DNA from: Candidatus Omnitrophota bacterium
GTDB taxonomy: Bacteria > Omnitrophota > Gorgyraeia > Gygaellales > Profunditerraquicolaceae
Direction: 5' to 3'
Length of the DNA: 64,000 bases
Assembly (NCBI GenBank): GCA_003598135.1
Contig: QZKA01000026.1
Location: 11,258 to 75,257 of the forward strand
The notes under the pieces were generated by a model. The model did no database searches, was not told the DNA's origin, and saw only the letters and a program-made list of their open reading frames with translations. Shown piece after piece: positions 1 through 40,438 of the stretch (position 1 is its first letter; every line of letters begins with the position of its first letter). Position numbers and translations under genes: made by a program.

Positions 1-3000
1 GAGAGGGCTTTCTGTCTTTGAGAATACTCCTTGAGTTATAGCAACGACGTCTCGCAATTTTCTTGATTTAACCGGAGATATATTTTCGGTTTCCCATTCT
101 TGATCAGTTAGTTCACTAACAAATAAACAAGTCCTTATTTCTACCTCACCAGCTTGCTGTCCTATCATAGCAATGTCTTGAAGCTTCTTAAATTTTCCTA
201 TACCTCTTTGGGTATAGTCTGCATACGTTCCGTCGAGCACTCCATGCTCGACGGCTATTTTATATGCCTTCTTTGGATGAGATACAAATCTTTGTTTTCC
301 TTTCAGATATGTTGAGAAATCTTGCCAGATTATGCTGTTTGTTTCTCCTGCGACAATGTTTTTAATAGCAGAATAGTAATTTAATGATAATAATTTTATA
401 TATCCTAAATCTACAATGGCGTTGCCTACCTTAGTAAGCCAACCCATCTTGCCGGACCGGAATTCGTAGTCTAAACCGCGGCCTTTCAGATTTTGTAGAA
501 ATTTCTTAAGCCACAGGGCACTCCTGCCCTTGATGATCAGCTGCGTTGCCACCTGGCCAAGCGGCAGGACCCGGTCAAGAGCCATCTTGGTCTCAAATAA
601 AGACGAGTATTCATGCACTATCTTGCGGATGTTTGTCGTCGGTTCTATGCCGCCTTTTCGCTGCAGGGCAAAACGGAAGAACTTCTCGCTGCCGATGATG
701 TTATCAAGCTCAAGCATTATGTCTGTAGGAATTCCTTCCTCTGCAGAGCGTTCATCAAAATATTGCTTCAATGCTCCTATAACTCCCCTTTCCAGTATTT
801 TTTCGGTTAAGGGCTGTTCAAGATACGTGATATAATTCTTGCGGAATTTCTGCAGGCCGAGTTTTTCTTTCACCATCACGAAGAAGTTCTTAAGATATGC
901 TACTACGGCTACTTCTTCTTTGGTGAGCTCTACCTTTTCACCGCTTAAGGCCCGGAAGATCTCTTTATTCTGAGAGGTAAAGAACCTTTTTGTCTTTTCT
1001 CCCGCAGGAAGTTTTCTTGATTTCTCAGCCTTGGTCAACATCTCCTCGAGCTGATTATCGCGCCGGCGCACTTCCTCTTCTGCAAATTCTGACCTTTCGT
1101 CTATCTCATTTAAAATTTTCCGCACAAGAGGATTTCCTTCTTTTATATCTACCGTCGGGATGAGTTCGTTGGCTACCCTGCTCATGATCAGACCCTCAAG
1201 GAGCTGTGGGTCGTTACCAAACTGCTCTATGGCGATACGTTTCGGCATGATGGCGAGATCCTTTACGTCTTCTAAAAGGCCCTGCAGCACTTCTATTTGC
1301 TTTTTCGATAGCAACTTGTCGCCTGCTTTAAGACCCTCGAGATAATCAACCACTTTTTGTATCTGAGGGATATCGGTATTTTTCCATTCTTTGATACCGA
1401 GATAACTCTTGATCCTCGATACTGTGATGTTGGAGAGCATCTTGCTTTTGGCGATCAGTTTTATCTTGGCTATCAGATCCTGCTTTCTCGCTTCCTCCTG
1501 GAGTTTCAGCTCATGCTCTCTGAGCCATTCAATAAATCTTGCACTTTGTCCTGTAACTCTTTCGGTAACGTATTGCTGTCCTTGCTCAACAGCTCCTGCT
1601 CCTTCTGGTCCAACTTGTCCCAGAGTCCGTTCAGCACTAACACCTGCGCCAGAAACATATTGCTGGGGGAATTTGAAGTTAATAAAGCTGATGATTTCAT
1701 CTCGACCGCTCCTTTCGGCTACTGCGCCTATCGCCTTATTAATGTTGTAAGGAAGTTTATGGGCGCGCAGCCAGTTTATCAATTCATAGTCCGCGTTATT
1801 GGTATATATTATCTTGACGCTTGTTTTTACTAAGGGCATTAGATGCTTCTCTAAATTCTCCTTGTGCCCTTTCCAGGTTATATCGCTTAAACCTACTGAA
1901 TATGTCCCAGCAGCTTCTGTTGGACTCAGGTATTGCGGATCCACGAGCACTACCACCGTTTCTTCCGCATTTACCTTGCCGGATTTTATGTCACCAGTGA
2001 GCGTATCCATCGCATCCCAGGCATCGCTTTGCATAACCGGCATCCCCTGATCTCTTTTTAACTCGCTATCTAATTGACCATTAAAGTCGATTAACTTGCT
2101 TACGATGTTCTTTATTGCCGATTCGCCCTTACTGGTCCGGATAATACCTTGCGTCCATTGGTATCCGCTTTCAGTTTTGCTTATAGAGAATATGCTGGCA
2201 TTCTCCAAAAAGTAATACTTAGCGCTTGATTCCGGGCTGGCGAATTTATCGGCCGCGGCTTCCTGCAGCAGATTATCTCCGAATTCCTGGATTACTTCCC
2301 GGGTAAAATAATAGCGTTCTTTTCTCAGGCCCATCTTCAGCCAAGAATTAAGCATATCGAGAAAGTCTTTATTGTCTTTTGCGGGCGGGAGATTAAAAGC
2401 ATCCTTCATCAGGACGACAAAATTGTTCATGATAGCTACCAACGTCTGCTTCATCACCTTCTGTTTCTCGGGATCCTGGATGTTTTTATAATAGTTATAT
2501 CGCTCGTCGCTGAGTTCATTCAAAGTATAGTTCTCTGCAGGGATATCCCAGAACAGGCCTACGCGATAACCCTTTGCACCACCCCAGAGGTCAAATACTT
2601 TCTTGATACCTTGCCTTAATACTGCTTTAAATTTTTCCGGGAGCCGCGCCAGAACCTCGGCTTTATTTCCGAGGAGAGCAAACGGCATGCCCCGGAATAT
2701 CTTGGCTCTTTCTTCGTAATTTATGTCTTCTTTAGTACTTATGACCGACCCGTTTCCTACTCCGGTTATCTCTCGCTCAGGCTTAAGCTTCTTTTTCGTT
2801 ACCGGCGCGCTGATCCCTTTTTGCATCTTAACCCTGGCTGCCTTGCTTATTTTCGCCTCTGATGTCGCAGCGCGGCCCTGTATTTCATTGCTAAAATACG
2901 CCTTAATTAGATCTAAAACGTCCTGCTCGGTTTCAAGGGGAGCGCCGATTATACCGCCAAGTTCTGCAGCTAATACATCTGGCCGCTGTCCGCCCTCACC

Positions 3001-6000
3001 AAACAGCCAAGGTAGAAGTTTTAGATCCGCATATTCTCCTTCCTCTTTCAGGGCCGGATCCAGCTTTCCTTTAAGGTAATTCTTTATCTGATTTCTTATG
3101 AACCCTTCCTCTGCTGCCCCTGCCTCTTCCGTTTCGGCGCGCATCTCATCGACTATTTCCTGCATGTGCGCGTATGCCCACATCTCGGTTTTCTTCACGT
3201 CCTCTATGTCCTCGCCGAACTCTTTAGCGATCTGTTTCAGGCTCTTTTTCTCGTCGATGTATTTCTTAAGGAACTCCTTGTCGGACACCGTCAGCCTGTT
3301 GATAATGTCTGAAGTATTCCAAAATTCCATCTCAGCCTTGCGCTGTTCAATACGTGGCTTTGGCTGCTCTTCTTCCGGTGCCGGAGGATGCGTTAGGCCG
3401 CCTGCCGCCGGAATATTTTTTTCTCTATAATCATCGAGCCATTTCTGCGCCTGTTTTTCTGTGGTAAAATTAGGGCTTATGCTTGTATTTACACCATTCT
3501 CTTCTTTATAAACACTATATCCTCCACCGCCTAACCCCTTGGGGCCAGTATTCTTCAAAATCTTTAGATTTTCTTCACCACCTAATACCTTACCTTTAAG
3601 CTTATTTAATTCGCCTTCATAGACGGTAATCTGCTTCCCATCCTGCAGCTTAACTTTATTCGGAACGATATTGCCTTCAGAATCATAGACCGGCAAAGTC
3701 CGGTATTCCTCACCTTTGGGTAAAGTCACGATCTCACCTTTTGTATTTACTATCTGCATCTCTTCATCCATACGGAAGATCTGCATCTGGTCAGGCTCTA
3801 ACCCAGATACGCCGACTTCTTTTGGCATCTTGCCGAAGACGGGTTGACCTTCCTGCAGGAGTGCTTGCTTCATCTGGGGGGTGATGGTGATGGATTGCTG
3901 GGTTGTTAATCTGGCTTTCTCAAAATATCCTGGCGTTATCTCTTTTACTTCGTCTCCTATTTCTACCGTCTCAACCTGCGCCCCAAACTTCTTGGCGTAG
4001 TCATTAAGCCAGTTGGGAATTTGTTTGTCATAGAGATTCTGCGCCCATTCTCCGCCAACTCTTAAATCCTCGCCTTTAATACTTCCTGATTTTTTACCGT
4101 CTATAATTTTCTGGGCATTATCTTTACCTACAAAATTGCGGAGTTCTTCTGGATTCTGTATTGCCTTACCCTCAAGAATTTTTCCATCTTTAATAATATC
4201 AACACTCCATCCTTGAGCTGGGCCAAAACTTTTATACTTTATCTCGTCTATAATTTTACTTAAATCATAATACTCCGCCACCTGTTCCCCCGTCGCCCAA
4301 GTTATAAAGTCGTATCCATTCTCAGCAGCATAACGCAAGAGACGCTTGAGAATAATTTCGTGCCAGCGGGTAACGGCGGGATGTTGAGGCACCATCTTAA
4401 ATCCTTGACCTATAGCTATACCTTTTTCCACTGATGCCTGGAATTTTCTATAATCTATACTCCACTGGCTCTGGATTTCGTTAACAAATAATCCTTTGCG
4501 GCCCTGCTCATCCGTTACATCAGCCATACGCGCATGCGCGAAGACGTTGGGTTCGTCCCAATGAGGTTCTTTGTATGCAGAGACATAAGGTATATTTTGT
4601 CTTTGCCATTCAAGATATTCTGCTCCATTATATCGAACAGCATATTCTGCATCTTCTTTTGATAGTCCTTGTTGCATTAAATCTCTAATTGCATCGGAGG
4701 GCCTTAATCTCGAATGTTCATAAGGTACCTTCAACAACATCTCCTTATAATTCTCTGTAACTACGTTATATTTGGCGTCGGAGTATTTAGCGGTATCAAC
4801 TTTTTGTGTTTTAGGATTTCCTACCACGAATTGATTGTAACGCTCTAAGTCATCCTTAGTTTCTATAGATTCGTATTCGCCTTCACGACTAATGCCATGC
4901 ACCTGCTTACCTTCATCAAAAGCTTCCGTGGCTCTATCTGCTTCTACAACCTCAAGTTCTCCTACGCCCTTTACCATCTCCTCAATCGTCATCTGGTTCT
5001 TTTGTAGGTAGTCAAGGAGTTCGGGCTTCGATATCTTCTCCTTGCCTTTCAGAAATCCCTCTATTCCAGACCACTCGATTTCTTCATTAGGTATCTGTGC
5101 ACTCTGCAGGATGCCGCGCACCTGCTCTATTGGAGCGGATTCCGGCATCTTCTCTGCCAGGGCGCTTGTCATCTTAGAATAAAAAACAGGGGCTTTTTGG
5201 GGCTTTACAGCCATTCCGCCGGCTTTAGGCTGGGTAGTAGTAGTGGTGGCTGGAGCCCAGATTGCCCTGCCTGCCTCGCCTGGTGCTTGTTTTGAGGGTG
5301 TTTTAGGGGTATATGTCAATCTGTCATAAGTAGCCTGTTTGGCTGGGTCTATAGGGCCAGCTGGCTTTTCTATCTTGGTGCGCATCAAAGTATAGAAATC
5401 CTTGATCATCCTAAATAAACCTACCCGCGTTGATGCTGCATCTAAAGCATCTACATCAAGGGTTATCTTTCCTTCTGGAAGACCTTTTTCGCTGGCTATC
5501 CTGTTTGCTTGAGCTATAATGCCCCTGCCAAGAGCCGTTTTTGCCAATGTTGGAGCTTCAAAAATAAGCGATAAAGCCGTAATCATACCGCCTTGCTTTA
5601 AGGCCTGTTCGAGATCTGTTCCGAATACTGTCTCAAGGCCTGCAGTGCCTGCCCCTCTTGCTCCGGCCCGGGCTATTGCCGAAAGATACGGCCGTCCTAT
5701 GAATCTAAGCGCTCCGGAATAATGCCATATTGGAGCCATTGCCCCGCTCTTTATGGCTTCAACCCCAAGTTCTTTTGCTTTTTCTCCCGCAGGCATAAGC
5801 AGGCTTTCATCGGTTCTGATCTCTCCTACTTTTCTTGTTAAACCTACAGTCTCAAAGGTAGCCAGCGTTCCTAACAAGCTCTGTGGGAATAATGGCGCTG
5901 TGGCTATAAATGGCGCTACTCCGGAAACTATCTGGCCTAAAGTAAAGGCAACCGGATGCTCTTTCTGCATGGCTATGTCTTGCTCAACTTCAGCTTGCGG

Positions 6001-6354
6001 TTTAGGGCCTTTCTCTAATCCAAACGGCCTTGATAAATCAGGCCGGTATCCAAACGGCTTAGTGAAAAATCCCACGACTCCTTCGGTATACGGGATTAAA
6101 AAAGATTGCAGGGCGCCAGGGTCATTAGTTTCCGCGTCTTGAATAAACCTTACTTCTCCTGCGCTCAGCGGCCGGTTGATGTTGTCCTTGATCTGCTGAT
6201 GGAATTGCGAGCGCACAAACCCCTCATATCCTTCTCCTCCGTCGATAGGCTCAGTTACTTTTAAAGCCGTGTTGATGTCAAATTCCGGCTCTTTGGTAGG
6301 TTGGCCGTTTTCTTCTGCAATAGGAATTGCCGTCTTGATATCAAACGCTGGCAT
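1..6354 (-). CDS. giant virion-associated protein, over 2100 aa, C-terminus beyond the window start; putative internal virion/ejection protein (T7 gp16-like position)
   Basis: Single open minus-strand frame from ATG at 6354 (TAATG overlap with the upstream gene) to the window edge, verified at both ends; no other plausible ORF in 6.3 kb; last gene of the tail/ejection block. Confidence 0.6.
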   Translation of the reverse strand, partial: MPAFDIKTAIPIAEENGQPTKEPEFDINTALKVTEPIDGGEGYEGFVRSQFHQQIKDNINRPLSAGEVRFIQDAETNDPGALQSFLIPYTEGVVGFFTKPFGYRPDLSRPFGLEKGPKPQAEVEQDIAMQKEHPVAFTLGQIVSGVAPFIATAPLFPQSLLGTLATFETVGLTRKVGEIRTDESLLMPAGEKAKELGVEAIKSGAMAPIWHYSGALRFIGRPYLSAIARAGARGAGTAGLETVFGTDLEQALKQGGMITALSLIFEAPTLAKTALGRGIIAQANRIASEKGLPEGKITLDVDALDAASTRVGLFRMIKDFYTLMRTKIEKPAGPIDPAKQATYDRLTYTPKTPSKQAPGEAGRAIWAPATTTTTQPKAGGMAVKPQKAPVFYSKMTSALAEKMPESAPIEQVRGILQSAQIPNEEIEWSGIEGFLKGKEKISKPELLDYLQKNQMTIEEMVKGVGELEVVEADRATEAFDEGKQVHGISREGEYESIETKDDLERYNQFVVGNPKTQKVDTAKYSDAKYNVVTENYKEMLLKVPYEHSRLRPSDAIRDLMQQGLSKEDAEYAVRYNGAEYLEWQRQNIPYVSAYKEPHWDEPNVFAHARMADVTDEQGRKGLFVNEIQSQWSIDYRKFQASVEKGIAIGQGFKMVPQHPAVTRWHEIILKRLLRYAAENGYDFITWATGEQVAEYYDLSKIIDEIKYKSFGPAQGWSVDIIKDGKILEGKAIQNPEELRNFVGKDNAQKIIDGKKSGSIKGEDLRVGGEWAQNLYDKQIPNWLNDYAKKFGAQVETVEIGDEVKEITPGYFEKARLTTQQSITITPQMKQALLQEGQPVFGKMPKEVGVSGLEPDQMQIFRMDEEMQIVNTKGEIVTLPKGEEYRTLPVYDSEGNIVPNKVKLQDGKQITVYEGELNKLKGKVLGGEENLKILKNTGPKGLGGGGYSVYKEENGVNTSISPNFTTEKQAQKWLDDYREKNIPAAGGLTHPPAPEEEQPKPRIEQRKAEMEFWNTSDIINRLTVSDKEFLKKYIDEKKSLKQIAKEFGEDIEDVKKTEMWAYAHMQEIVDEMRAETEEAGAAEEGFIRNQIKNYLKGKLDPALKEEGEYADLKLLPWLFGEGGQRPDVLAAELGGIIGAPLETEQDVLDLIKAYFSNEIQGRAATSEAKISKAARVKMQKGISAPVTKKKLKPEREITGVGNGSVISTKEDINYEERAKIFRGMPFALLGNKAEVLARLPEKFKAVLRQGIKKVFDLWGGAKGYRVGLFWDIPAENYTLNELSDERYNYYKNIQDPEKQKVMKQTLVAIMNNFVVLMKDAFNLPPAKDNKDFLDMLNSWLKMGLRKERYYFTREVIQEFGDNLLQEAAADKFASPESSAKYYFLENASIFSISKTESGYQWTQGIIRTSKGESAIKNIVSKLIDFNGQLDSELKRDQGMPVMQSDAWDAMDTLTGDIKSGKVNAEETVVVLVDPQYLSPTEAAGTYSVGLSDITWKGHKENLEKHLMPLVKTSVKIIYTNNADYELINWLRAHKLPYNINKAIGAVAERSGRDEIISFINFKFPQQYVSGAGVSAERTLGQVGPEGAGAVEQGQQYVTERVTGQSARFIEWLREHELKLQEEARKQDLIAKIKLIAKSKMLSNITVSRIKSYLGIKEWKNTDIPQIQKVVDYLEGLKAGDKLLSKKQIEVLQGLLEDVKDLAIMPKRIAIEQFGNDPQLLEGLIMSRVANELIPTVDIKEGNPLVRKILNEIDERSEFAEEEVRRRDNQLEEMLTKAEKSRKLPAGEKTKRFFTSQNKEIFRALSGEKVELTKEEVAVVAYLKNFFVMVKEKLGLQKFRKNYITYLEQPLTEKILERGVIGALKQYFDERSAEEGIPTDIMLELDNIIGSEKFFRFALQRKGGIEPTTNIRKIVHEYSSLFETKMALDRVLPLGQVATQLIIKGRSALWLKKFLQNLKGRGLDYEFRSGKMGWLTKVGNAIVDLGYIKLLSLNYYSAIKNIVAGETNSIIWQDFSTYLKGKQRFVSHPKKAYKIAVEHGVLDGTYADYTQRGIGKFKKLQDIAMIGQQAGEVEIRTCLFVSELTDQEWETENISPVKSRKLRDVVAITQGVFSKTESPL

Positions 6355-8015
6355 TATTTCTGTCCTTCAGTTTTGGTTTTCTCTTTGTACGTTACTACCG
6401 GTTCAATAGTACCGTCAGGATACACTATCGCCTTGTTACCGTACGCATCCATCATCAGCTGGCCTTTGGGAGATATCGTGTCTATTTCGGGAATCTTACT
6501 GCGTAGGTGATCGTTCATAATCGCTTTTACCGCTTCCTGCGGATTCGCCTGCGGGTCCTGCAACGTGCCTAACAGTTGCTTGATTCGAAAAGTTATCTCT
6601 TCATCACTGGCGTTATTTTTCCCCATCCACGATTTGAATCCTTTTATGGCCGAGTTTATTGGTCCCGAATAACGATTAAATTCTATATGTTTCAAGTTTT
6701 TCTGAAGGGCATTTAAAAACCTCGTTTCCTGCGAGTTTATAATCCCGTCGGCGTATGCTTCGGCGAGTTTTTCCCTGGCATGCCATTTATCAGTGTCTTC
6801 ACTTACAAAGGCATCTATCAATTTTAAGTATTCTTTAACTTCCTTTGCGCGCTTGGTTGGGTCTTTGTCGGAATCTTTCTCCGTAAGCATCCTATTCAAA
6901 TCTCTTTGAATACCGTTCTGTATTGCTCTTTGATAATTCACCAAGATTTTTTTCTTTAATCCTCCAGCTTCCTCCGGGATCTGCATTTCATTCTCGATAT
7001 CGCGCAGAGTAAGTTTTTCCGTGGCGAGATTATCAAGCAACTTGTTATGCCTCGTTTCCTGGCCGTCGGCAATCATCTTTTCGGCAAGCGTATTGGTAAA
7101 GTCATACGCGGCTTTGCGCTTGACCGGGTCTTTTATGTTATATGCGTTTTCTTCTATCTTCTTGCGGGTGGTAATAGGATCAAGGAATGCGTCGGTTATC
7201 GCGATATTGTACGGGATACCGCTCTCGACTTCCTCTTTCATTTTTTGCTCTATTTCGGCCGGCACTTTTCCTTTTATCGCGTTGTAGATTGACTGTGCTT
7301 TTATGAGATTATTCTCTGCCATGGCGGATGCAAACGCGCTTTTTGCCACCTTACCTGTTATCTTTACACGCTCTGCTTCGGCAGTTTTCTCGTCGAAGCC
7401 GCTTATCTTGCTAAGCGAATTTTGGGTCACGATAGCCTGCTCTATAGCCCGTATCACCGATGGCCCATCCTGCAGCTGCGCGGCATCGTTTACCTGGATA
7501 TCAAGGTTAGACTTAAATGAATTCTGGATGCTTTCGTCTACCTGTTGGCGCTCATGGCGTATGATGGTATCGCGGCTCGATAAATATGTCTGGTCAAGCC
7601 TTCGCGCCAAAGCTTCTTTTTGCTCGGGGGCCGCTACGTTATTCAGATAATGCTTCCGGATGGTATAGTATGTATTATCAAACTCCGGGGTGACGTTCTG
7701 TGCCTGATCGAGTTTTCTGTTCAAAAAACCGACAGGCTTTCCTTTATCATCCACTTGGTCGTTATAGAGTACATTTTGTAGGTCCTTCCTGAACGAGGTA
7801 TCCTGTTCGATGAGCTCCTTTTCCATCAGTTCTTTTTTGCGCTCGGCTGCCCTCTTCATCAGGGCATTCGCTATCGTAAGGCCGGTTTCTCCGAGCCGCG
7901 TTGCAGCATCAGCCATTTCCGCGCCGAAAGCCGCAGAAGGCGGCCTTAATTCCTGAGGAGTCGATACTGTAGGCACTACTCTGCTTGTCTGTTTCTCATA
8001 TACAGGAACTCTCAT
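6354..8015 (-). CDS. coiled-coil-rich phage protein, 553 aa, putative internal virion protein (gp15-like position)
   Basis: Long ORF with K/E-rich helical composition, coupled to the flanking virion genes. Confidence 0.55.
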   Translation of the reverse strand: MRVPVYEKQTSRVVPTVSTPQELRPPSAAFGAEMADAATRLGETGLTIANALMKRAAERKKELMEKELIEQDTSFRKDLQNVLYNDQVDDKGKPVGFLNRKLDQAQNVTPEFDNTYYTIRKHYLNNVAAPEQKEALARRLDQTYLSSRDTIIRHERQQVDESIQNSFKSNLDIQVNDAAQLQDGPSVIRAIEQAIVTQNSLSKISGFDEKTAEAERVKITGKVAKSAFASAMAENNLIKAQSIYNAIKGKVPAEIEQKMKEEVESGIPYNIAITDAFLDPITTRKKIEENAYNIKDPVKRKAAYDFTNTLAEKMIADGQETRHNKLLDNLATEKLTLRDIENEMQIPEEAGGLKKKILVNYQRAIQNGIQRDLNRMLTEKDSDKDPTKRAKEVKEYLKLIDAFVSEDTDKWHAREKLAEAYADGIINSQETRFLNALQKNLKHIEFNRYSGPINSAIKGFKSWMGKNNASDEEITFRIKQLLGTLQDPQANPQEAVKAIMNDHLRSKIPEIDTISPKGQLMMDAYGNKAIVYPDGTIEPVVTYKEKTKTEGQK

Positions 8016-25801: not shown

Positions 25802-25843
25802 GTACTACTCCTTTCTTTTATTCTTCCTCGCTGGTTTTTTTTA

Positions 25844-25927
25844 TTGCGGGGGTGGGATTCGAACCCACGGTGTCCTTTCGGATACATGGTTATGGGCCAT
25901 GCGACCTCGCCACTGGTCAACCCCGCG
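25844..25927 (-). tRNA. phage-encoded tRNA, apparent anticodon CAT, atypical long variable region
   Basis: D-arm GACC-AGTGGCGA-GGTC, anticodon arm CATGG-CCCATAA-CCATG, T-arm GTGGG-TTCGAAT-CCCAC, 6-bp acceptor with C1-A72 mismatch and A73; 16-nt variable region. Confidence 0.6.
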
Positions 25928-25943
25928 ATTGATTTATCTTTTC

Positions 25944-35572: not shown

Positions 35573-35806
35573 TTATTTAGGTTGAAGTAAGAGTTTTTCT
35601 ACGTCGTCCCAAAAAAACCTCAGTGCCCGATTAGCCCCCAGCTTTACCGGCCTAATGCCCATTAACAACTCCGGCCATTTGTTGCGCAGGTAGTTTTCCG
35701 AATACCGAAGACGGCTTGCTATCGTTTTAATATCTACTACTTCCCTTATCATACCCCCTCCTACAAGCGCTCTAATTCCTCCTGTACTACCTTCGACTTC
35801 TTCCAA
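35573..35806 (-). CDS. small DNA-binding (excisionase/AlpA-like) protein, 77 aa
   Basis: Position in the early operon downstream of cro; HTH-like segment. Confidence 0.35.
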   Translation of the reverse strand: MEEVEGSTGGIRALVGGGMIREVVDIKTIASRLRYSENYLRNKWPELLMGIRPVKLGANRALRFFWDDVEKLLLQPK

Positions 35807-35955: not shown

Positions 35956-36192
35956 TTAGTCCTCCTGTTCTATCTCGCGGTCTAACGTTAATAGCTCAGA
36001 AGCGTCAAGCCCGGTCAGTAGGCAAAGCTTGCGGAGCATCTGCCATGACGGATGCTTCGGTTTTTTTTCGTCAAGCCATTGCGATATGAGGCTATCATCG
36101 CAGCCAAGCTCCAGCGCAAGCTGCCGTTGATTCCACCCCTTGAGTTCCATCCACTTATTCAGTTTTCCTGTGATTCTAAACGCTCCCTTCAT
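35956..36192 (-). CDS. cro: Cro-like XRE-family HTH repressor, 78 aa
   Basis: HTH NQRQLALELGCDDSLISQWL; divergent from the cI-like gene across an operator region; SD GGAGGA. Confidence 0.6.
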   Translation of the reverse strand: MKGAFRITGKLNKWMELKGWNQRQLALELGCDDSLISQWLDEKKPKHPSWQMLRKLCLLTGLDASELLTLDREIEQED

Positions 36193-36261
36193 GCGATCCT
36201 CCGATTTACTTTATGTATCACTCGTTGGTTAAAAAAAATTGCTCCCTGGCGTTTCAAGGCA

Positions 36262-36403
36262 ATGATACTACTTTTTGTAATCTTGTCAAGCGTTTTTTTA
36301 CAAAAAGTGGTATTCATATTTTTATGTTCTAAAAATTCCGTCGGTAATGCTACTTTTTGTATGACTTAAAATATTTGACTAAGCCTACTTACTGTAGTAT
36401 AAA
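36262..36403. promoter_or_regulatory. genetic switch region: Pcro (-35 36284..36289, -10 36262..36267 on the minus strand), PcI (-35 TTGACT 36375..36380, -10 TATAAA 36398..36403), and three operator repeats TACAAAAAGT(A/G)GTA at 36267..36281, 36299..36312 and 36349..36364
   Basis: Three copies of a 14-bp motif in alternating orientation overlapping the divergent promoter hexamers. Confidence 0.55.
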
Positions 36404-36461: not shown

Positions 36462-37046
36462 ATGCTGCTTAAAGACCGCATCAGACAATTAAGGGAAGAT
36501 AAAAAACTCCTACAGAAAGAATTCGCCAAAAAGCTCGGCGTATCTAAGCCTACGGTGTCAGCCTGGGAGCAGGGATCAAGGTATCCTAACTCTACCCAAC
36601 GCAAAAAAATATGTGAGTTCTTTGGAATCAGCGAAGCAATGCTTTTTGGTTTGCCGAAGGTGGAGATTGAAGATGCTATCATCCCTATCGTTTCTTCCGT
36701 AGGTGCCACGGACGATCTTGGACGCGCGGCATTTGAGGCGTTCGATCCACCCTATAAAACGATATCTTTTAAAGATTGCAAAGCGGTCGTGGTAGACTCA
36801 AACAGTATGGCGCCGATTGCGTATAAAGGACAGAAGATTATTTACTGCGAAACAGAGCCGGTTCACAACGGGGACCTCGTGTTTATAAAACTCAAAAAGG
36901 GGGCGCAGCTGTTCAAACGCTTTCACAAAAATCACGATAACATTATCACGCTCCAGAGCGTTAACCCTACAGAATCCTTTGATCCTATTCCGGTACACGA
37001 AAAGGAGATTGAATTCTGCTACAAGGTCATGGGAGTGAAGTTTTGA
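36462..37046 (+). CDS. cI: CI-like repressor: XRE HTH plus S24 LexA-type peptidase domain
   Basis: N-terminal HTH; C-terminal SNSMAP (Ser) and LFKRF (Lys) dyad with GDLVFIK; near-leaderless start. Confidence 0.8.
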   Translation: MLLKDRIRQLREDKKLLQKEFAKKLGVSKPTVSAWEQGSRYPNSTQRKKICEFFGISEAMLFGLPKVEIEDAIIPIVSSVGATDDLGRAAFEAFDPPYKTISFKDCKAVVVDSNSMAPIAYKGQKIIYCETEPVHNGDLVFIKLKKGAQLFKRFHKNHDNIITLQSVNPTESFDPIPVHEKEIEFCYKVMGVKF

Positions 37047-37552
37047 AAAGGCATACCTTAATATATATTTTTCTCTTGCTTCTCTCCGGATGCGCAACGC
37101 TTTCTTCCCTGCCGCAGACTATCGATGGTGTCGATTTCAATTCGCTTAAGACCGGTCGGACCGCCATGTGGACGTACGAAGACGAAACAGTCTTTAATAA
37201 TATGGATAAAGAAATGATCTTCCTTGCGGCAAAGCATGGTCTTTCCGCAAGCGGATTCGTGATCAGAAAAGCCTCGTTCGAAGATGGGGTATTGCTTGGG
37301 TACCACGATACGACAGCCCACGACTGGAACGTCGTTGCCGGAGTCTACATTAAGCAATCCGGAGAAAAAACGGCAGTCAAGGTTATCGCAAAAACCTCAA
37401 AGGATTTTTCATTGGTCGGTAATATCGGGGATACTACTTCCGCAAGCTGGCCGCAGCTCATTATCAGCGCAATGCAGGATTATATAGTAAAGGAGTCTCT
37501 TACTGCTAATAAACCTGCCAAGCACTTAAAGGTGAATGGAACTGAAAGATAG
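37043..37552 (+). CDS. prophage lipoprotein, TTG start, 169 aa; candidate superinfection-exclusion (Ltp-like) moron
   Basis: Signal peptide with lipobox LLSGC; located between cI and int. Confidence 0.55.
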   Translation: MKRHTLIYIFLLLLSGCATLSSLPQTIDGVDFNSLKTGRTAMWTYEDETVFNNMDKEMIFLAAKHGLSASGFVIRKASFEDGVLLGYHDTTAHDWNVVAGVYIKQSGEKTAVKVIAKTSKDFSLVGNIGDTTSASWPQLIISAMQDYIVKESLTANKPAKHLKVNGTER

Positions 37553-37733
37553 AATTAAGGAATTAAGGGGAAAAAAGCGTCTTACGCAGGCCCAGCTGGC
37601 CGAAGGGACAATGGTTGACCAGTCTACTGTCTCTTATTGGGAAAAGGGCCGCCAGGAGCCTAACGCGGCGCAAAGGAAGCAACTCTGCCGATTCCTGGGA
37701 ATCACCCAATCAGAACTCTTTAAGGGTTTATGA
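37536..37733 (+). CDS. XRE-family HTH protein, 65 aa; paralog of the CI N-terminal domain without the peptidase domain
   Basis: About 48% identity to CI residues 1-62 (LKDRI..LR..K.L.Q...A....V...TVS.WE.G...PN..QRK..C.F.GI....LF). Confidence 0.55.
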   Translation: MELKDRIKELRGKKRLTQAQLAEGTMVDQSTVSYWEKGRQEPNAAQRKQLCRFLGITQSELFKGL

Positions 37734-37891
37734 AAACCGGCATCAAGCTTATCCTGAAACTTATCGGTTATGGTTTCCTTATCTACTATCTTGTTATCTG
37801 CAGCATCGCTAATTGGACCGGCAAGACTCAATATCTCCGCTTCCCCTGGGGTAACACTCCCATTCGATCATACCAAGACGTAGATCCATGA
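37730..37891 (+). CDS. small membrane protein, 53 aa, ATGA-coupled to both neighbours
   Basis: Hydrophobic segment LILKLIGYGFLIYYLVICSIANW. Confidence 0.35.
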   Translation: MKTGIKLILKLIGYGFLIYYLVICSIANWTGKTQYLRFPWGNTPIRSYQDVDP

Positions 37892-38901
37892 GTTCTCTCT
37901 ACCGCCGCAGTGGTATCTACTGGCTCTCTTACCGTCAATATGGGAAGGGCCATTGTATGAGTCTTGAAACCCGGGATCGGTCTACCGCACTCTATAAAAA
38001 AGCCGAAAAAGACAAAGAGCTGATTGAGGGTAGAAGCGTGATCCCTAAAGCGAATGCCACGTGCGCTCCCCTATTGGAAGAATTTCACAACTACAATCTG
38101 CACCGCAAGACAAAAGACGCCAATTCAGATGATTGCAGCAGGATTAAGAAGTTTCTTTCCTGGGCCGGTATCTCATCGTTTAATCAAATCACTGAACAGC
38201 GACTGCAGGAATACCTTAACCATCGCTTCTCTACAGAAAAAATAGCCCCGCGCACGGCGAATATGATCATCACCAATCTTAAAACTTGGCTCAATTTTTG
38301 CGTTAAGAATAGGAGGATACCGGAAAATCCCCTGGCGCGCATGAAGAAGTTTAAAGAACCGGTTAATCCTAAGCGATTCCTCAGCCGCGAAGAGATCAAC
38401 TCTTTGCTCAAAGAGACTCAAAACGATGAGCATTACTGTAACGGGGACGCTTCACTGTATCCGGTAATTGCGATGGGGATATACGCCGGGTTGCGTAAGC
38501 AAGAAATATTCAGCCTGGACTGGCAGGATATCAATTTCAAACGCGAGGAAATAACGGTCAGGAATAAAGCTAACTTTGCTCCAAAATCGAGGAATTTCAG
38601 GGTTGTGCCATTGCACGAGAATCTCAAGAAGATACTGAAGCCTTTGGTCAAGAATAGCGGCCGGTGCTTCGATGTTACGAATCAACGCAGGATATTCGGC
38701 AGGATTACAAAAAAAGCCAATCTTACAGGGATTGGCTGGCATACCTTGCGACACACCTTTGCTTCTCAGCTTGTCATGGCTGGGGTTGACCTGGCTACCG
38801 TGGCTAAACTGCTGGGCCACTCAAGCATCACCACTACGATGATCTACAGCCACCTTTCTCCGGACCATGTCCGGGGGGCTATAGATAAACTCAGCTTCTA
38901 A
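37888..38901 (+). CDS. int: tyrosine integrase
   Basis: Catalytic R (GLRKQE), HTLRHTFAS (HxxR), MIYSHL (Tyr). Confidence 0.85.
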   Translation: MSSLYRRSGIYWLSYRQYGKGHCMSLETRDRSTALYKKAEKDKELIEGRSVIPKANATCAPLLEEFHNYNLHRKTKDANSDDCSRIKKFLSWAGISSFNQITEQRLQEYLNHRFSTEKIAPRTANMIITNLKTWLNFCVKNRRIPENPLARMKKFKEPVNPKRFLSREEINSLLKETQNDEHYCNGDASLYPVIAMGIYAGLRKQEIFSLDWQDINFKREEITVRNKANFAPKSRNFRVVPLHENLKKILKPLVKNSGRCFDVTNQRRIFGRITKKANLTGIGWHTLRHTFASQLVMAGVDLATVAKLLGHSSITTTMIYSHLSPDHVRGAIDKLSF

Positions 38902-38977
38902 AAATCACTACATTAATCACTACAGTCTTTCTCTAATCTCGTTACATTCCAGTAGGTTAGGTTGGTAATGCTTAAGC

Positions 38978-39015
38978 TTATGAGTCACCTGCTCTACCAC
39001 TGAGCTATGGGCCCC
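38978..39015 (-). pseudogene. tRNA-Met (CAT) 5' fragment; probable prophage attachment junction
   Basis: GGGGCCCATAGCTCAGTGGTAGAGCAGGTGACTCATAA matches elongator tRNA-Met through the anticodon loop, then homology ends; no T-arm. Confidence 0.5.
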
Positions 39016-39249: not shown

Positions 39250-39350
39250 ATTGCCGATAAAAGCAAACTATCCGAAAGGGTAGGACGCAAAGCTACAGGG
39301 CCTAAAGACCGCGCAAGCGGAACATGGTAGCCAGTTGCCGAAGCGAACGC
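39250..39350 (+). ncRNA. cyclic-di-GMP-I (GEMM) riboswitch aptamer
   Basis: GCAAAC-UAUCC-GAAA-GGGUAG-GACGCAAAGC..GGGCCUAAAG..ACCGC-GCAA-GCGG..GGUAGCC matches conserved GEMM-I elements (compare the Vc2 aptamer). Confidence 0.75.
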
Positions 39351-39367: not shown

Positions 39368-39400
39368 GCGCCGACCGCTTTTTATCGGCGTTTTTATTTT
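39368..39400. terminator. bidirectional intrinsic terminator (CGCCGA-N10-TCGGCG, U-tracts on both strands)
   Basis: Hairpin followed by TTTTTATTTT on the plus strand and GGGTTTTTTGTGG on the minus strand. Confidence 0.6.
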
Positions 39401-39874: not shown

Positions 39875-40204
39875 TTATGTGTTCTTGAGGAGATGGTAGC
39901 TTCCCATCAAGTCAGTTTCTTCCAGGTCAATCCCTGCCATATATCTATTACAAATGGTAGATTTTGACCAAACGACCATGCCGCGGGTAAACAGGGGTTC
40001 TTGATGGTGTGGGAAATACAGCCATATACCTACAATCATACGCACAGAGAGTTCTTCGCTTGTTACAAGGCAAAGGCCTTTAGCGCAGACATTGTAAGTC
40101 TCGGCATCGTTGTTGTAATACGAATCTGAGCTGCAATACTTCACCGCGAGCCTTGCTGAGCAACGTTCAAATACCCTCCGGTCTTCAAAACCTAGGTCAT
40201 CCAT
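39875..40204 (-). CDS. PilZ domain (c-di-GMP receptor) protein, 109 aa
   Basis: RRVFER (RxxxR) and a downstream D/NxSxxG-like segment. Confidence 0.45.
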   Translation of the reverse strand: MDDLGFEDRRVFERCSARLAVKYCSSDSYYNNDAETYNVCAKGLCLVTSEELSVRMIVGIWLYFPHHQEPLFTRGMVVWSKSTICNRYMAGIDLEETDLMGSYHLLKNT

Positions 40205-40438
40205 CTCTCTCCTGTATGCCGGTAATAAAAAGACCGCGCTGCCCCCTTTTCCGGCAACCCGGCTATCGAAAACCGCTACATTCGACCCGTAGGCTTTCCG
40301 CTTCTCAAATACACGAGATTTGGCTTTTTCGGTGAAGGATTGCTCCTAATATAATAATAATTAATAATTAACAAAAATCAAGGGGTCAAAGGGGCCTGGA
40401 AGAAAGCGTTTTCACAAGAGAAAACAAAATACCGGGAT

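Follow-up and report, generated by a model that had tools for sequence, protein, structure and literature searches.

Genes that exclude superinfecting phages are established parts of phage lysogeny modules (PMC3952083). In phage TP-J34 of Streptococcus thermophilus, as in lactococcal phages of the Sie2009 type, such a gene lies between the repressor and the integrase gene, on the repressor strand. Ltp, the lipoprotein of TP-J34, works by binding the tape-measure protein with its two repeat domains (PMC3952083). Here we describe a lysogeny module that has a lipoprotein gene in the same position, in a prophage of Candidatus Omnitrophota. The module is part of a stretch of 64,000 nucleotides (contig QZKA01000026.1), which we call the window and to which our coordinates refer. 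Between the gene for a CI-type repressor and the gene for a tyrosine integrase it carries three small genes. They encode a lipoprotein (LipoA), a standalone helix-turn-helix (HTH) protein of 65 amino acids (aa) that we call HTH65, and a membrane peptide of 53 aa that we call TM53.

A second set of exclusion lipoproteins comes from phages of diderm hosts: Cor (phi80, N15, HK022, T1), Llp (T5) and Rtp45 (Rtp). The host phylum of LipoA is diderm as well. Genes of the cor/llp type adjoin tail or receptor-binding genes. Their products bind outer-membrane receptors from the periplasm, an established mechanism, and this abolishes the binding of the phage receptor-binding protein (PMC9586334, PMC12685063).

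Small DNA-binding proteins without further domains also have known counterparts in phage switches. 434 Cro is a domain-sized XRE-family HTH protein (about 65-70 aa) without a dimerisation or cleavage domain, and HTH65 is built likewise. In P2 and 186, int is transcribed together with the repressor gene. Two other small DNA-binding proteins, Apl of 186 and Cox of P2, are regulators and recombination directionality factors at once; each has binding sites between the early promoters as well as at att (PMC7498355).

Our reading of the Omnitrophota locus is that its operon has two layers. One layer is a hypervariable slot for lipoprotein genes, which would serve superinfection exclusion. The other is a conserved backbone of HTH65, TM53 and Int, in which HTH65 would read a site common to the whole phage group. 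Judged from sequence comparison, we put the chances of this reading at about even.

A lysogenic operon of five overlapping genes

The five genes are tightly packed on the plus strand in the order cI, LipoA, HTH65, TM53, int:

36462-37046, plus strand: cI repressor, 194 aa (HTH_3, E 1.8e-13; Peptidase_S24, 39 bits against a cutoff of 23.3; phrog_4 transcriptional repressor, E 1.8e-25)
37043-37552, plus strand: lipoprotein LipoA, 169 aa, swappable cargo (lipobox LSGC, TTG start)
37536-37733, plus strand: HTH65, standalone XRE-family HTH protein, 65 aa, backbone gene (HTH_3, E 5.8e-13)
37730-37891, plus strand: TM53, single-pass membrane peptide, 53 aa (one hydrophobic segment)
37888-38901, plus strand: int, tyrosine integrase, 337 aa (Phage_integrase, 93.9 bits against a cutoff of 27.1, E 1.2e-26; phrog_1, E 2e-62)

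The initial annotation of this DNA had placed three open reading frames (ORFs) between cI and int, in an operon expressed on the lysogen side. All three are present on the plus strand at the positions it gave, and the operon does have a CI-type repressor gene at one end and a tyrosine integrase gene at the other. The surrounding prophage is that of a tailed phage and looks complete. That all genes are coupled through ATGA overlaps is true in part: HTH65 and TM53, and TM53 and int, are joined in this way, but cI and LipoA meet at TTGA, and LipoA and HTH65 overlap by 17 nt, as they do in the related locus L007. LipoA, HTH65 and TM53 are more than chance ORFs. Between orthologs the synonymous sites are saturated and the proteins are conserved. 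A scan of the window found no convincing terminator inside the cI-int operon, and we infer that the five genes are co-transcribed. A maintenance promoter to the right of the operators would then transcribe cI, LipoA, HTH65, TM53 and int as a single translationally coupled unit.

A variable lipoprotein slot in front of a conserved backbone

To compare the operon with its relatives we used LipoA, HTH65 and Int as probes against a protein collection, IMG/VR, metagenome contigs and GTDB genomes. The resulting comparison set comprises 13 loci of one phage group (the window; L007/8; L001/13/121; L062/19; L063/122; L065/123; L116; L117; L118; L119; L120; L124; L125). Their repressors vary: some have 194 or 206 aa, both with an S24 domain, others have 184 aa, and a further type has 122-129 aa and another C-terminal domain. 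Because the repressors and the palindromes in the promoter spacers differ between the phages, the 13 loci are, by their sequences, heteroimmune relatives.

The slot between the repressor and HTH65 is filled differently from locus to locus. LipoA occupies it in three loci (the window, L007 and L001, the latter two with an extra small membrane ORF) and is absent from it in the other 10 of the 13. Five loci carry LipoB (phrog_3716), which is unrelated to LipoA (L063, L065, L119, L124, L125), and one carries a third, again unrelated, lipoprotein (L116). In the remaining four the slot is empty (L062, L117, L118, L120); in L062, the one that was checked, HTH65 begins within an overlap with the stop of the repressor gene. 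All 13 loci have HTH65, and nine have TM53. Int always follows, mostly through overlapping codons.

Because the slot content changes while HTH65 and TM53 stay with int, the lipoprotein is a moron in a hot spot, and HTH65 and TM53 form an integrase-proximal backbone. The initial annotation had treated all three genes as cargo of the lysogeny module. This description fits LipoA only; HTH65 and TM53, wherever they occur, are joined to int.

As a separate observation, the cargo lipoprotein of L119 (429-1133) has a LipoB-like domain and, at its C-terminus, a BamE/DUF3192 domain that scores at the Pfam thresholds. LipoA and this protein, both occupants of the slot, thus resemble accessory lipoproteins of the BAM complex.

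LipoA and its family

LipoA starts with MKRHTLIYIFLLLLSGC, a signal peptide with the lipobox L-S-G-C, as is typical of a bacterial lipoprotein. Its TTG start aligns with the ATG starts of the L007 and L001 orthologs and is preceded by GGGAG 8 nt upstream. The G-C of the lipobox is invariant in 16 of 16 close homologs. A lipoprotein of 169 aa with a TTG start and a lipobox, as first annotated, is thus well founded. Further invariant residues among the 16 close homologs are H88, D94-W95-N96, S119-K120-D121 and G129-D130. Between orthologs of LipoA dN is 0.10 and dS is undefined.

A profile search of 1.84 billion representatives found a family of 161 clusters. A lipobox-like motif is present in 103 of the 166 family sequences retrieved, many of them fragments. 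About 11 of the 150 family members listed are longer (340-411 aa), with the LipoA domain at the N-terminus and a Trypsin_2 protease at the C-terminus; Trypsin_2 was matched in seven of the ten longer members that were scanned. In P0020, P0022, P0026, P0031, P0032, P0035 and P0047 the LipoA domain forms the lipid-anchored N-terminus of a Trypsin_2 serine protease, an architecture without a name.

The genomic contexts of the family are diverse. Three phages of the group have LipoA itself in their lysogeny module. In three unrelated siphovirus contigs from IMG/VR (L014, L015, L016; marine phages of the Alteromonadales type) a LipoA homolog lies directly 3' of a gene similar to the lambda tail-tip gene J (phrog_31, E 2.7e-55; phrog_469, E 1.6e-205). 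One homolog follows a gene for an outer-membrane beta-barrel. Another lies on an island in a metagenome-assembled genome (MAG) of Glaciecola (L017), together with an Rhs-like gene, an integrase fragment and toxin-antitoxin-like genes (ORFs read by eye). Many family members are in plain chromosomal settings. A tblastn search with LipoA against 50,697 phage records gave no match, and a match to phrog_1119 (Cor; E 0.019) covers only residues 1-24, the signal peptide.

We modelled LipoA with AlphaFold (AF2; pLDDT 78.8, pTM 0.74). The best fold match in the PDB is the N-terminal domain of BamC (2yh6; Foldseek E 5e-5, target-normalised TM 0.60-0.63), followed by proteins of the SRPBCC type. Like LipoA, BamC of Escherichia coli is a lipid-anchored envelope protein with a helix-grip domain. 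The resemblance is one of fold only: identity is 12-14%, and LipoA has no NCBIfam or Pfam match to BamC. BamC also has two helix-grip domains and an N-terminal stretch that binds BamD, whereas LipoA has a single domain.

A possible role of LipoA in superinfection exclusion

LipoA is a lipid-anchored protein with a helix-grip fold like that of the BamC N-terminal domain, presumably facing the periplasm. Its most likely role would be to act at the envelope of the lysogen and keep out superinfecting phages. The likeliest route would be the one taken by Cor, Llp and Rtp45, in which LipoA would bind or mask an outer-membrane component that incoming phages need. By analogy, such a role is plausible. 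We favour it because both positions that the gene takes in phages are sites of known exclusion genes, and because lipoproteins that lock receptors are established.

The initial annotation had proposed LipoA as a candidate for an exclusion protein like Ltp. The candidacy gains from the position of the gene, from the unrelated lipoproteins in the sister slots and from the homologs next to J-like genes. A relationship to Ltp is not borne out, and the likeness is one of gene position only. LipoA has no sequence similarity to Ltp (no Pfam match, and no Ltp-like match among the PHROGs), and it is a single helix-grip domain, whereas Ltp works through two repeat domains. The likeness to Cor, Llp and Rtp45 is limited as well. 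The homologs in L014-L016 share the adjacency to tail genes, but the copy in the window lies in the lysogeny module instead. In addition, Cor, Llp and Rtp45 are much smaller (Rtp45 about 6 kDa, mature LipoA about 16 kDa), their fold differs and there is no sequence match.

An o-spanin, which we also considered for LipoA, was rejected on context: the gene belongs to a repressor operon and not to a lysis cassette.

HTH65 is constant where the immunity region varies

HTH65 belongs to the XRE/Cro-CI family (HTH_3, 49.1 bits against a cutoff of 23). It consists of the HTH domain and lacks the S24 domain of a self-cleaving repressor, which the upstream CI has. Its orthologs in the 13 loci are 62-94% identical (mean 72% pairwise), making it the most conserved gene of the operon. 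The mean identity is 51% for Int and 43% for the HTH domain of CI, with pairs of the latter ranging from 8 to 94%. Of 78 pairs, 62 have saturated synonymous sites; in those that allow the calculation dN/dS is about 0.1.

This conservation has to be seen against the switch region, which contains the following elements:

35576-35752, minus strand: conserved early-lytic protein, 59 aa (in 10 related loci, two subtypes)
35956-36192, minus strand: Cro-like HTH protein, first gene of the divergent lytic operon (HTH_19, E 3.3e-7; divergent from cI across the operators)
36262-36289, minus strand: lytic promoter, PR-like, TTGACA-16-TATCAT (promoter scan, 11/12 matches; operator O1 in the spacer)
36265-36279, 36299-36313 (minus strand) and 36347-36361: three 15-nt operators ATRCTACTTTTTGTA (3 matches against 0.29 expected)
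36338-36344: CCGTCGG box (2 nt from operator O3; the maintenance transcript is inferred to start about 70 nt downstream)
36375-36403, plus strand: candidate maintenance promoter of the cI operon, TTGACT-17-TATAAA (read from the sequence by eye)

The operator repeats that had been reported at 36267..36364 are real. They are the three copies of ATRCTACTTTTTGTA, all in the cro-cI intergenic region, and the 64-kb window contains no further copy elsewhere. A weaker fourth copy lies at 36207-36222, and a degenerate one at 36381-36400 overlaps the spacer and the -10 hexamer of the candidate maintenance promoter. The promoter scan missed this promoter because it demands a T at position 6 of the -10 hexamer.

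The lytic promoter is nearly identical across the loci. It consists of an A-tract, CTTGACAA and TATAnT, and the A-tract and CTTGACAA are kept in 11 loci. The palindromes in its spacer are immunity-specific, are repeated nearby and fall into five types: TACAAAAAGTAGTAT (the window), TCCCAnnnTGGGA, ACACnnnnnGTGT, ATCAAAnnnnnTTGAT and TAGGAnnnnTCCTA.

The recognition helix of HTH65 does not follow these palindromes. Helix 3, DQST(V/I/A)SYWEKGRQEP, is the same in 11 loci, across operators of five different types. The residues at its start, predicted to contact bases, are QST in HTH65 and KPT in the CI of the window. Because helix 3 is constant while the operators differ, it is unlikely that HTH65 reads the immunity operators, as had been suggested. 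Most likely HTH65 would instead read a site that is common to the whole phage group, because HTH65 stays constant while repressors, operators, integrases and att sites change.

We considered operators of the L062 type (TTCCCAnnnTGGGAA) as a target, since HTH65 shares QST with the L062-type repressor. The prophage contains none.

Further observations concern the early lytic side. In the lytic leader, between the promoter and cro (36227-36259, minus strand), lies a terminator-like hairpin followed by T8AACC, which at least six relatives have in the same spot. An 11-mer of the leader, GGTTAAAAAAA, is common to seven loci. The hairpin may be an attenuator or an antitermination target ahead of cro. 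The 59-aa early protein is a possible excisionase only by a reading of its sequence pattern by eye, for which Pfam and the PDB gave no sequence support.

A box shared by the switch and the att region

An alignment of the switch regions revealed a candidate for such a group-wide site. In nine of 11 loci a box of the form CCG(A/T)CG(G), GC-rich and with a T-rich flank, lies 70-130 nt upstream of the cI start. Compared to the locus-wide rate of one per 2.4 kb this is a strong enrichment (binomial P about 2e-13, for loci that are non-independent). In five of six loci the box recurs in the attP arm, 40-260 nt beyond the stop codon of int. L062, for example, has boxes at 3511 and 5525, and L065 at 3166 and 5523. 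An exact search for shared palindromes (half-sites of 5-7 nt, spacers of 0-10 nt) found none in more than five loci except A/T runs.

The two loci without a box in the switch region (L001 and L063) are the two in which helix 3 of HTH65 is altered, with AE(C/S)T in place of DQST. The subtype of the 59-aa protein tracks the presence of the box less well, in nine of 11 loci. From these patterns the CCGWCGG box is a candidate target of HTH65, which we regard as a lead. By binding the box HTH65 would adjust the activity of the cI-int operon, and perhaps integration too, in a way that does not depend on the SOS response.

Weighing the two-layer reading

Several points weigh against the reading of a lipoprotein slot for exclusion and a backbone with its own group-wide site. 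LipoA matches no Pfam-A family at E<=0.1 and nothing meaningful in PHROGs, NCBIfam, PADLOC or the PDB sequence profile. Among the predicted viral structures of BFVD its matches are weak, the best having an RMSD >10. The BamC match is modest when normalised by the query (TM 0.41-0.46). LipoA has no sequence likeness, nor any convincing structural likeness, to a proven exclusion protein. The protease fusions, about 11 of the 150 members listed, point to envelope proteolysis rather than receptor masking, and in one case a standalone LipoA homolog has a Trypsin_2 gene two genes upstream. As for HTH65, L063 keeps its att-side boxes despite the altered helix, and other proteins might occupy the box, such as an architectural protein of the host or the 59-aa early protein. 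Finally, the counts are non-independent because the 13 loci share descent, and the host assignment of the relatives is inferred only.

The protease fusions and the Trypsin_2 neighbour suggest a different role for LipoA, that of an envelope factor of lysogenic conversion. It could be a regulator, adaptor or inhibitor of a periplasmic trypsin-like protease, or a modulator of outer-membrane protein biogenesis. An envelope factor of this kind would suit the best fold match, to a domain of a BAM-complex lipoprotein, the BamE/DUF3192 domain in one sister cargo lipoprotein and the ordinary chromosomal contexts of many family members. However, the contexts in phages, in the lysogeny module and after the J-like gene of L014-L016, are classic sites of exclusion genes. 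The slot holds only lipoproteins, and these are of unrelated families, which speaks for a shared task at the envelope more than for the control of a protease. From the fusions one learns that the domain is able to anchor a protease, but not how the free domain acts. On balance we see in such a role a serious rival, though a rather unlikely one, and continue to favour exclusion.

HTH65, for its part, could be an accessory protein of Int or a recombination directionality factor (RDF). Translational coupling would then keep it in a fixed ratio with Int, and it would bind attP and the switch, like Apl of 186 or Cox of P2, to steer integration or excision. The gene lies upstream of int in an overlap-joined arrangement in 13 of 13 loci. 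A box at both the switch and the attP arm is the dual-site pattern documented for Apl (PMC7498355), although the pairing of HTH65 with the box is our inference. HTH65 also has a weak NCBIfam match to the HTH of the VC1465 family of Xer-activation factors (E 8e-6, below the cutoff). Yet Apl and Cox are encoded in the lytic operon, whereas HTH65 belongs to the lysogenic one, and following the logic of P2, 186 and lambda an RDF made together with Int in the lysogen would be expected to destabilise the prophage. HTH65 varies independently of Int (72% against 51% identity) and of the att core, which changes from phage to phage. At known RDF sites, such as those of Apl and Cox, direct repeats are spaced by one helical turn; the box is a single quasi-palindrome. 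Given its place beside int in the lysogenic operon and this lack of co-variation, a directionality role is unattractive, and we hold it to be unlikely.

The initial annotation had described HTH65 as a truncated paralog of CI, about 48% identical to the HTH domain of CI and lacking the S24 domain. As a description of the protein this is accurate: 30 of 62 residues are identical to the N-terminus of CI (48%), and HTH_3 is its only domain. We take this level of identity to resemble that between 434 Cro and the N-terminal domain of the 434 repressor, two proteins that share operators. Together with the absence of S24 and with co-transcription with cI, as read from the gene layout, it would suit a copy of the resident cI that acts on the operators at 36265-36361, either as a non-cleavable immunity factor or as a dominant-negative or anti-repressor partner. 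As a statement of origin "truncated CI paralog" goes too far. HTH65 is no closer to its cognate CI (40%) than to non-cognate CI proteins of heteroimmune relatives (39%), and it is about equally close to the CI proteins of Pseudomonas phages (47-49% over the first 51 residues). Its best matches in cultured phages are N-termini of CI, at <=49%. Because the identity to cognate and non-cognate repressors is about equal, HTH65 does not derive from a recent truncation of the resident cI but is, as these comparisons indicate, an old, independently conserved standalone HTH protein. HTH65 also differs from 434 Cro in some respects. It is encoded on the repressor strand, in the lysogenic operon and joined to int, it does not co-vary with the operators, and the position of Cro is already taken by the separate Cro-like gene at 35956-36192 on the minus strand. 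With QST instead of KPT at the start of helix 3, and with that helix invariant over five operator palindromes, action of HTH65 on the resident operators is very unlikely.

Equally doubtful is a toxin-antitoxin, abortive-infection or prophage-stabilisation pair in which TM53 would be a membrane toxin and HTH65 its repressor or antitoxin: the genes are adjacent and ATGA-coupled in nine of 13 loci, in size and hydrophobicity TM53 is like typical small membrane toxins, and HTH65 has sub-threshold matches to the MqsA and HipB antitoxin models and to HTH components of defence systems, but these matches are those of a generic HTH, far below the family cutoffs, TM53 matches nothing in PADLOC, Pfam or the phage collections, and it is missing in four of 13 loci where HTH65 is retained and highly conserved, so that the two are neither an obligate pair nor members of a type II toxin-antitoxin family.

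TM53

The N-terminus of TM53 is basic, a single span is hydrophobic, and the tail carries the conserved motif IAN.T...Q.L..PWG. In comparison with its L007 ortholog synonymous sites are saturated (dN 0.17, dS undefined). Searches of Pfam, PHROGs, NCBIfam, PADLOC and cultured phages gave no match. The small peptide could be toxin-like, or it could serve exclusion from within the inner membrane, where it may add a second layer to the exclusion proposed for LipoA.

The prophage and its surroundings

The locus is part of an integrated, complete-looking tailed prophage with its right end inside the window. Left of the lysogeny module lies the gene set of a tailed phage: RecE/RecT-like, replication, ParB-like, terminase, adaptor, major head and tail genes. 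At the left edge of the window (1-6366, minus strand) one stop-free frame of more than 2,100 codons extends beyond the window. It presumably encodes a giant tail or fibre protein of the prophage. The host is a member of Candidatus Omnitrophota: LipoA is 100% identical to a protein of an Omnitrophota MAG. The right end of the prophage lies at about 39014/39015, where the similarity to the sister phage L062 breaks off and beyond which host genes follow. The other end of the prophage (attL, P' arm) is outside the window; in a search with 12-mers no second copy of att-region sequence turned up.

Two features lie between int and the prophage end:

38905-38924, plus strand: two direct TCACTACA repeats, 12 nt apart (kept after the int stop in five of five aligned phages)
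38978-39014, minus strand: tRNA-like fragment at the right end of the prophage, a 5' half with a CAU anticodon loop (by eye; L062 homology runs through it)

The TCACTACA repeats, on the evidence of their position and conservation, are likely arm-type Int sites. ARAGORN and Rfam made no call on the tRNA-like fragment. A tRNA-like 5' half is also present in L062 at about 5430-5470, the opposite of the usual targeting of tRNA 3' ends. L063 has a whole tRNA-like gene beside int at about 5300-5390, Pro-like by eye.

Some observations stand apart from the operon. The window contains a phage-borne tRNA of 86 nt (25843-25928, minus strand) that was called as tRNA-Met (anticodon CAT); its long variable arm is unusual for a tRNA of the Met or Ile2 type. 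On the host side of the junction, 39252-39342 (plus strand) matches the c-di-GMP-I riboswitch with 70.4 bits (gathering score 35). It is followed by a terminator-like hairpin at about 39369-39400, and no plus-strand ORF of at least 100 aa lies within about 2 kb. A second c-di-GMP-I match, also on the host side (40249-40333, minus strand), scores 47.2 bits, under the gathering score of 59, and precedes an ORF of 109 aa (39875-40204, minus strand) that is PilZ-like by eye. Among the relatives, L001 (10526-12513) and L013 represent a sister phage with a diversity-generating retroelement, a reverse transcriptase (RVT_1) with an mtd-like target, a few kb past int.

Implications

None of these findings overturns current understanding. 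Lysogen-expressed morons in a lysogeny module are a well-known type of arrangement. Two points stand out: a slot that collects lipoproteins, with an uncharacterised family among them, and an unusually conserved HTH protein with a candidate dual-site box.

One fixed slot that holds one of three unrelated lipoprotein genes or none is a clean natural experiment. The pattern marks the occupants as lysogen-expressed envelope factors and as candidates for new superinfection-exclusion families. The LipoA family, with its roughly 161 clusters, is spread over phyla and phages and also serves as the anchor domain of periplasmic proteases.

An HTH protein that is better conserved than the repressor and the integrase across heteroimmune phages falls outside the textbook switch. 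In its boldest form our proposal would make HTH65 a new regulator of the lysogeny side, a mirror image of Cox and Apl. It would bind a group-wide box at the operators and attP, link control of the maintenance promoter with integration without SOS cleavage, and, since the site is shared across the group, maybe act in trans on related incoming phages, while the slot would collect lipoproteins of which one founds a BamC-fold exclusion family. We think this full combination improbable. If HTH65 does bind the box at the switch and at attP, however, it would add a new regulatory layer that links immunity and integration.

Omnitrophota is an uncultivated phylum of very small bacteria, and its temperate phages are essentially undescribed. 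The locus and its 12 relatives give a clear view of the architecture of the lysogeny switch in such phages.

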